Shown here: in pieces, positions 36,055 to 36,125 of the stretch
How the letters are laid out: every line of letters begins with the position of its first letter
Position numbering within the stretch: position 1 is the first letter of the stretch
Source: a phage
Sequence record: PX759567.1
Reading direction: 5' to 3' (one strand)
Length of the DNA: 39,152 nt
Position numbers and translations under genes: made by a program
The notes under the pieces: model-generated
The model's input: only the letters and a program-made list of their open reading frames with translations
Databases searched by the model: none
What the model was told of the DNA's origin: nothing

Positions 36055-36055
36055 T

Positions 36056-36078
36056 TAATTGAACTCACTAAAGGGAGA
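36056..36078 (+). promoter_or_regulatory. T7 RNAP promoter phi3.8
   Basis: TAATTGAACTCACTAAAGGGAGA. Confidence 0.8.
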
Positions 36079-36125
36079 CCACAACGGTTTCCCTTTGTTC
36101 GCATTGTTGATTAAGGAATAACCAT

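Follow-up and report, generated by a model that had tools for sequence, protein, structure and literature searches.

Unoccupied sites for optional endonuclease genes, and the gene haplotypes linked to them, in a T7-group phage genome

Introduction

How does a phage of the T7 group come to carry the promoter phi3.8 with no gene 3.8 behind it? In PX759567.1, phi3.8 is followed directly by gene 4. A sequence-only reading of this DNA noted that genes 2.8, 7.7 and probably 1.4 are missing as well while their flanking signals are retained; it described several of these genes as HNH-like and, pointing also to HNH genes and an intron gained elsewhere, took the pattern as turnover of selfish endonuclease genes on an otherwise near-identical backbone. 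The question is whether PX759567.1 lost these genes or whether T7 gained them. We consider it very probable that the 2.8, 3.8 and 7.7 sites are unoccupied homing sites that, together with two further sites for optional genes (1.4 and 5.3), are in a common, probably ancestral state. T7-group genomes routinely differ from one another in which small endonuclease genes stand between their conserved genes.

Results and discussion

The genome and its backbone

The window, that is, the whole 39,152-nt stretch of PX759567.1, is a complete Teseptimavirus genome, circularly permuted so that its first base lies inside gene 5. It has the T7-collinear gene order, single-subunit RNA polymerase and T7-type promoters of that genus (nine near-consensus T7 promoters found, zero expected). 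By tblastn, T7 order is kept for 50 of 56 T7 proteins (gp1 98%, gp2.5 99% and gp8 98% identical), and the T7-homologous genes are all on the + strand. In database searches it comes closest to 13a, T7 and the phiA1122 group (~92–94% identity); loci from IMG/VR are ~91% identical, and PDP351P2 (OZ035763.1) reaches 95.2%, in the late region only. A relative at least 95% identical genome-wide, which would have helped to date the turnover, was sought in the searched collections and none was found.

Because identity is ~94% at best, PX759567.1 is a distinct Teseptimavirus, not a strain of T7, and its backbone is similar rather than near-identical, as had been claimed: the blocks collinear with T7 (NC_001604) by blastn are 81–97% identical by segment and ~92% overall, and several alleles have been replaced outright relative to T7 (genes 1.2, 1.7, 5.5 and 7, and tracts in genes 3, 4 and 8). 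The T7 terminal repeat (T7 1–160 and 39778–39937) is represented by a single copy at 25636–25806; the two copies have therefore been collapsed in a circularly permuted assembly, whose region 25636–25806 holds the true ends of the genome.

Five small optional genes are absent

PX759567.1 is without five small optional T7 genes, namely 1.4, 2.8, 3.8, 5.3 and 7.7; gene 5.3 is an addition to the earlier list. With gp1.4, gp3.8 and gp5.3 as queries, tblastn gave no match at E<=0.01 anywhere in PX759567.1, and gp2.8 and gp7.7 match a single paralogue only, the HNH gene at 24606–25067 (39–40% identity). The intergenic room at four of the sites is 0 nt (genes 2.5/3), 14 nt (7.3/8), 19 nt (5/5.5) and 47 nt (after phi3.8), with no coding capacity. 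Breakpoints were taken from blastn and from reading the sequence, since global MAFFT alignments of the junctions are noisy around the large gaps. The whole-genome alignment to T7 that the earlier reading had proposed as a check gives clean, ORF-sized breakpoints, not diverged ORFs.

The Pfam family HNH_3 is found in T7 gp2.8, gp3.8 and gp7.7, so the description of the absent genes as HNH-like holds for these three; it does not extend to gene 1.4, whose product matches DUF5464 only (E 2.3e-36) and falls in a PHROG of unknown function. By the tests applied (Pfam and PHROGs), gene 1.4 is not a nuclease. T7 gp5.3 matches PDDEXK_5 in Pfam, that is, a PD-(D/E)XK nuclease; PHROGs assigns it no function.

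Anatomy of the five junctions

The features at the five sites are as follows.

1841..1865, + strand: gene 5 TGA (1841–1843), 19-nt spacer and gene 5.5 ATG (1863); position of T7 gene 5.3
4540..4818, + strand: gene 7.3, with TGA at 4816–4818
4819..4832, + strand: 14-nt spacer with AGGAGGT ahead of gene 8; position of T7 gene 7.7
4833..6443, + strand: gene 8, portal, with ATG at 4833; the first ~285 nt (4833–5117) are of the cassette-free (E-type) haplotype
32940..32970, + strand: early terminator TE, hairpin 32940–32959 plus TTTCTGCGTTT, T-rich tail ending at 32970
32970..32992, + strand: promoter phi1.5, TAATACGACTCACTAAAGGAGGT, adjoining TE; position of T7 gene 1.4
34445..35143, + strand: gene 2.5, ssDNA-binding protein, 99% amino acid identity to T7 gp2.5, with TAA at 35141–35143
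35144..35599, + strand: gene 3, endonuclease I, cassette-free allele, with GTG at 35144 and zero spacer after gene 2.5
36056..36078, + strand: T7 RNA polymerase promoter phi3.8, TAATTGAACTCACTAAAGGGAGA, a 23-mer identical to phi3.8 of T7, phiA1122 and 13a
36073..36093, + strand: R3.8-type hairpin with an 8-bp stem at the 5' end of the phi3.8 transcript
36107..36125, + strand: cassette-free spacer and gene 4 ribosome-binding site, TTGATTAAGGAATAACCAT; position of T7 gene 3.8
36126..37826, + strand: gene 4, primase/helicase, 93% identity to T7 gp4A by tblastn

The four junctions described earlier are as they were read: phi3.8 (36056–36078) leads directly to gene 4 (36126), without gene 3.8; gene 3 (35144) begins right after the stop of gene 2.5 (35143), without gene 2.8; gene 8 (4833) comes next after the stop of gene 7.3 (4818), without gene 7.7; and TE adjoins phi1.5 at 32970, without gene 1.4.

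At the 3.8 site, gene 3.5 stops at 36054 and phi3.8 begins 1 nt later. The 47 nt from phi3.8 to the gene 4 ATG hold only the R3.8-type hairpin and a ribosome-binding site, and the 56-nt phi3.8 leader folds with an MFE of −15.7 kcal/mol (z −2.2). The hairpin is homologous to the annotated RNase III site R3.8 of T3, and this homology suggests that it is likewise cleaved by RNase III. T7 homology ends at ...GTTCGCATTG (36106) and restarts at 36141 (blastn breakpoint 36106/36141 = T7 11213/11586); the T7 cassette replaces the gene 4 ribosome-binding site and the first five codons. The spacer of PX759567.1 aligns with that of T3, with GATTAAGGAAT common to both, and the two phages are 89% identical over 36050–36230, including the ribosome-binding site and the first gene 4 codons. 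The N-terminus of gp4 is MELEQDS in PX759567.1, MEREDDS in T3 and MDNSHDSDS in T7; that is, the gene 4 start of PX759567.1 is T3-like.

At the 2.8 site (breakpoint 35147/35168 = T7 9860/10278 by blastn), the junction sequence ...GACTTCTAAGTGG is common with T7, and the GTG in TAAGTGG opens gene 3 in PX759567.1 and gene 2.8 in T7, where gene 3 receives a new ribosome-binding site and an ATG from the 3' end of gene 2.8. At the 7.7 site (breakpoint 4827/4833 = T7 19843/20240 by blastn), T7 gene 7.7, with a GTG start, is inserted behind the AGGAGGT that both phages have and ends in a stop codon overlapping the ATG of gene 8; T7 gene 7.7 in this way borrows the gene 8 ribosome-binding site and is translationally coupled to gene 8.

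Between TE and phi1.5, T7 has 167 extra bp, consisting of a ribosome-binding site and ORF 1.4 (breakpoint 32971/32970 = T7 7593/7761 by blastn); the TE/phi1.5 junction of PX759567.1 is the same as in phiA1122 and 13a. Its TE is identical to that of phiA1122 and has one loop difference from that of T7. A simple terminator scan of PX759567.1 did not call TE, because the T-run rule of the scan is stricter than the TE tail; the terminator is backed by its fold (z −3.0) and by near-identity to the annotated terminators of T7 and 13a. At the 5/5.5 junction (breakpoint 1844/1846 = T7 16468/16834 by blastn), the T7 5.3 cassette brings its own ribosome-binding site.

It is genes 4, 1.5, 3 and 8, and not the cassettes, that the signals at these sites (phi3.8 with R3.8, TE, phi1.5 and the ribosome-binding sites) serve. 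Promoters, RNase III hairpin and terminator are kept with or without a cassette because they serve essential downstream genes; the flanking signals are thus present, as had been stated, and their retention is unremarkable, for they take the same form in cassette-free phages, including T3. For annotation, the name 'phi3.8' is historical, and the promoter serves gene 4.

Distribution of empty and occupied sites

Junction queries of 651 bp were compared with 50,697 phage records. The 3.5/phi3.8/4 junction is collinear in one piece in ~40 phage records, with 332 additional bp in T7, phiA1122 and NC-A, and the 7.3/8 junction is collinear in more than 35. The abutment of genes 2.5 and 3 extends across genera (including K11 and KP32), and TE adjoins phi1.5 in the phiA1122 group, 13a, LNA7, PHB19, Yanou and IME390. 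Both phiA1122 and 13a are without genes 1.4, 2.8 and 5.3.

A second, independent sample consisted of 31 viral contigs recovered via gp4 with 10-kb flanks, in which occupancy was scored as the distance between conserved anchor genes. The resulting occupancy matrix has 35 loci (L001 and following; 36 after PDP351P2 was added) and represents 33 distinct genomes, because L013 and L016 duplicate T7 and phiA1122. All five sites are empty in five loci: L007 (IME390), L008 (Salmonella phage 3A_8767), L009 (CICC 80001), L025 (N30) and L032. The four named phages have the same spacer lengths as PX759567.1 and share its cassette-free haplotypes of genes 3, 4 and 8 (vide infra), at ~91% nucleotide identity overall; IME390 is collinear with PX759567.1 through every site.

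IME390, CICC 80001, N30, 3A_8767 and T3 are the known phages whose configuration comes closest. T3 (NC_003298) likewise lacks genes 1.4, 2.8, 3.8 and 7.7: TE is closely followed by phi1.5, gene 2.5 adjoins gene 3, gene 7.3 is directly followed by gene 8, and phi3.8 with R3.8 stands directly before gene 4. Unlike PX759567.1, T3 belongs to the genus Teetrevirus, has T3-type promoters, carries gene 3.7 before phi3.8 and has an HNH gene at the 5.3 site. To call these genes 'missing' is therefore accurate as to their absence and T7-centric as a framing, since empty junctions are the commonest state in the T7 group and occur in T3 too; the configuration with five empty sites is neither rare nor new, and is a known polymorphism of the T7 group.

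In occupied loci, HNH_3 proteins are found at the 2.8, 3.8 or 7.7 sites of T7, phiA1122, 13a, NC-A, L005, L011, L014, L015, L024 and L028; gene 2.8 occurs only in T7 in the matrix. The proteins that fill occupied sites cluster in one HNH family and their alleles are very different: those at the 3.8 site are 31% (13a and L014), 49% (L015) and 78% (L024) identical to T7 gp3.8, and those at the 7.7 site are 47–70% identical. The turnover of endonuclease genes proposed earlier is borne out in that the same sites hold, in different phages, HNH alleles 31–78% identical to those of T7. The 5.3 site is filled by an HNH protein in T3 and by the PD-(D/E)XK protein in T7. Homologues of gene 1.4 (66–86%) occur in few phages only, and an HNH gene lies in the TE/phi1.5 gap of L005, L012 (NC-A), L026, MeretOppenheim, PVN09 and CQ615; the gap serves as a hotspot for insertions in general, even if gene 1.4 does not itself encode an endonuclease.

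Occupancy differs from that of PX759567.1 in the loci with the most similar gp4 (L005 and L006) and in the phage with the closest late region (PDP351P2), whereas the more distant IME390 and N30 match it. Judged from these sequence comparisons, occupancy is sporadic and does not follow overall relatedness.

Occupied sites are linked to divergent haplotypes of the downstream gene

At the 2.8, 3.8 and 7.7 sites, the flank downstream of the site is co-inherited with the occupancy of the site, and this association is absent from control tracts; PDP351P2 is the exception. PX759567.1 has the cassette-free haplotype at all three of these HNH sites (gene 3 and the 5' ends of genes 4 and 8).

In gene 4, the first ~180 nt (36126–36303) of PX759567.1 are of the cassette-free haplotype: over nt 1–180, 3.8-occupied phages are 62–66% identical to PX759567.1 (n=7) and close 3.8-empty phages 90–99% (n=10). 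The sliding identity over 36124–36303 is 40–72% for occupied, 87–100% for empty and 72–88% for T3. In L033 (Vi06-like), the 3.8 site is empty, yet nt 1–180 of gene 4 are only 69% identical. In the control tract for the 3.8 site, occupied and empty phages do not differ (p 0.59); because the genomes are phylogenetically non-independent, the Mann-Whitney p values overstate significance and are descriptive only. The overlapping T7 gene 4.1, which lies inside the cassette-linked gene 4 tract of T7, has no counterpart in PX759567.1 (36190–36310).

The first 285 nt of gene 8 fall into two haplotype classes, 91–98% identical within and 80–84% between classes; the differences are almost all synonymous, because the encoded proteins are nearly identical. 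Over nt 60–285, 7.7-occupied phages are 81–84% identical to PX759567.1 (n=6) and empty ones 93–98% (n=10), and the sliding identity over 4818–5117 is 72–88% for occupied and 93–100% for empty. In PDP351P2, an empty 7.3/8 junction exactly like that of PX759567.1 is followed by the occupied-type haplotype from gene 8 codon 4; its gene 8 start, near 24035, is 92–95% identical to T7, 13a and L005 and 83% to PX759567.1. Occupancy and haplotype can therefore be uncoupled, and PDP351P2 is a candidate for loss of a 7.7 cassette or for a crossover at the junction.

In sliding profiles of gene 3 (35164–35583), phages without gene 2.8 are 92–100% identical to PX759567.1, and T7, the only close relative with gene 2.8, is 70–78% identical, returning to 97–98% at the start of gene 3.5. 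Apart from T7 strains, AH67C600_Q5, itself a carrier of gene 2.8, is the only phage with the complete unit of gene 2.8 and gene 3 of T7 (L001 9857–10706); other phages match it over the gene 3 part alone, at 75% or less. The T7 gene 3 allele is an outlier, ~25% diverged from the collection's other phages except the 2.8 carriers; this allele, that of the widely used T7 endonuclease I, seems to have come in with the 2.8 cassette. In phiA1122, an extra HNH gene lies between genes 3 and 3.5, and identity dips to 70–78% at 35584–35703.

For the 1.4 and 5.3 sites, a cassette-linked flanking haplotype was sought with sliding identity profiles and none was found; genes 1.4 and 5.3 may turn over by a different route than the HNH cassettes.

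Origin of the empty sites

The closest mechanistic analogue is found in T4-like phages, whose free-standing homing endonuclease genes (seg and mob) are intergenic, ORF-sized and sporadic. The encoded enzymes cleave a neighbouring conserved gene in the cassette-free genome, and flanking markers are co-converted; the seg enzymes are of the GIY-YIG family, and cleavage and marker exclusion have been demonstrated experimentally in T4-like phages. Such co-conversion would match the linked downstream haplotypes described here, with the caveat that the endonuclease families are partly different and the phage group is different. From the observed anatomy, distribution and linked haplotypes of the sites we infer, by this analogy, a homing mechanism, a direction of change and locations for cleavage.

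Each T7 cassette fits into a short spacer between conserved genes, where it borrows the downstream start signal or supplies a new one. In the homing model, a cassette-free genome would be cut during co-infection and then repaired from the cassette-bearing genome, and T7 and some of its relatives would have gained their HNH cassettes by homing, with the downstream tract co-converted. The direction of change was judged by parsimony, with T3 and other genera as outgroups; gain in the T7 lineage rather than loss in PX759567.1 is the simpler reading, and tree-based polarity is weak because recombination is rife in the T7 group.

Secondary loss, in which an ancestor had the T7 cassettes and shed them by precise deletion or by recombination with a cassette-free phage that replaced cassette and flank together, seems to us unlikely. 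Homing-endonuclease genes are expected to pass through gain, decay and loss, occupancy varies among close relatives, and the 7.3/8 junction of PDP351P2 looks like a loss or a crossover. However, simple deletion from a T7-like ancestor is disfavoured because the occupied-type downstream haplotype would remain, and PX759567.1 has the cassette-free one at gene 3 and at the 5' ends of genes 4 and 8. Moreover, its junctions match those of many cassette-free phages (and, at the 3.8 site, that of T3), gene 2.8 is confined to T7 among close relatives, and no residual cassette fragments were seen at the junctions by tblastn or in the junction alignments. Had a cassette been lost by replacement recombination, the outcome would look the same as if it had never been there.

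That the empty sites are artefacts of assembly or of the laboratory (deletions in culture or collapsed regions) is highly improbable: non-essential genes are indeed lost by deletion from T7 stocks kept in the laboratory, and many T7 records of 36–38 kb are among the junction matches, but the architecture of the five junctions recurs base for base in many independent isolates and metagenomic contigs, and the haplotypes beside the junctions belong to natural cassette-free phages and not to T7. Equally implausible is an error of reading in which diverged, relocated or mis-sized copies of the ORFs were overlooked, a possibility ruled out by tblastn, the blastn breakpoints and the junction alignments: the gp2.8 and gp7.7 matches at 24642–24917 both fall, at only 39–40%, on the HNH gene that follows gene 19, whose position is that of gene 19.4 (annotated as HNH) in 13a, with 13a aligning up to 24997, and the only ORFs that overlap the sites are mechanical minus-strand ORFs, whereas the T7-homologous genes are all on the + strand.

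Returning to unoccupied homing sites as the preferred reading, we propose more tentatively, as something possible but somewhat short of probable, that the linked, mostly synonymous haplotypes show where the T7 HNH enzymes recognize and cleave their targets, with PX759567.1 as a natural sensitive target and PDP351P2 as a resistant, cassette-less stage. As part of the same tentative proposal, the predicted recognition and cleavage tract of gp2.8 is gene 3, that of gp3.8 spans the first ~180–240 nt of gene 4, and that of gp7.7 the first ~285 nt of gene 8. If this is true, T7 would cut PX759567.1 in co-infection and convert or exclude its markers. The linked haplotypes could instead reflect plain co-inheritance after one recombination event and not target-site immunity. 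In the literature searched, we found no cleavage or homing assay and no target characterization for T7 gp2.8, gp3.8 or gp7.7; the linked haplotypes give cheap, testable predictions of where these enzymes cut.

PX759567.1 is also a natural counterpart of an engineered T7 without its three homing endonucleases. T7 with deletions of 2.8, 7.7 and 3.8 ('T7 delta-3HE') is viable and is outcompeted by the wild type only on GAPS4 hosts (bioRxiv 10.1101/2025.09.07.674715), which independently supports that the three genes are dispensable. Both are T7-type phages without the three HNH homing-endonuclease genes; unlike PX759567.1, T7 delta-3HE keeps the T7 downstream haplotypes because it was made by engineered deletion from T7, and PX759567.1, unlike T7 delta-3HE, carries other HNH genes.

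Other endonuclease genes and diverged alleles

The HNH genes reported elsewhere in PX759567.1 are indeed there, at 24606–25067, at 33655–34044 and, within the intron, at 22662–23264. An 837-bp insertion (22454–23290) interrupts gene 19 (large terminase) after codon 161. A relaxed Rfam search gave a group I intron match at 22415–22678 (49 bits against a gathering threshold of 50; E 3.7e-11), and Rfam at the gathering threshold gave no match in the whole of PX759567.1. The intron ORF (22662–23264, 200 aa) belongs to the HNH endonuclease PHROG phrog_2081 and has no Pfam match. The element in gene 19 occurs also in PDP351P2 (99.1%), in Vi06 and the Salmonella phages CHRF and Sal_R1S (88–89%), and in Yersinia fPS phages (70%).

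The free-standing HNH gene at 24606–25067, between gene 19 and phiOR, matches HNH_3 and phrog_6254 (E 7.9e-63). In place of T7 gene 1.7 stand a short DUF3310 gene (33378–33608) and the HNH gene at 33655–34044, which matches phrog_3106 and, below the cutoff, Pfam HNH; the tract 33393–33512 is 98–100% identical to phiA1122 and less than 50% identical to all other phages compared. The ~250 bp between T7 genes 0.6A and 0.7 (T7 1770–2021) are absent at 27410–27443.

Several other alleles are strongly diverged. Gene 7 (4158–4517) is 55–72% identical to 13 phages compared, and among records that span gene 7 its allele is matched only by PDP351P2; no counterpart of T7 gene 7 is annotated in T3, nor does a tblastn search of T3 with gp7 of PX759567.1 find one. 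The gp1.2 of PX759567.1 (31559–31828) is 42% identical to that of T7. Alleles of gp1.2 have been tied to sensitivity to the PifA defence (BASEL paper, PMC11990801); with this diverged allele, F exclusion may therefore differ from that of T7. Gene 5.5 (1884–2123) is 39–67% identical to all phages compared; its protein is 44% identical to that of T7 and retains the Pfam domain Phage_T7_55.
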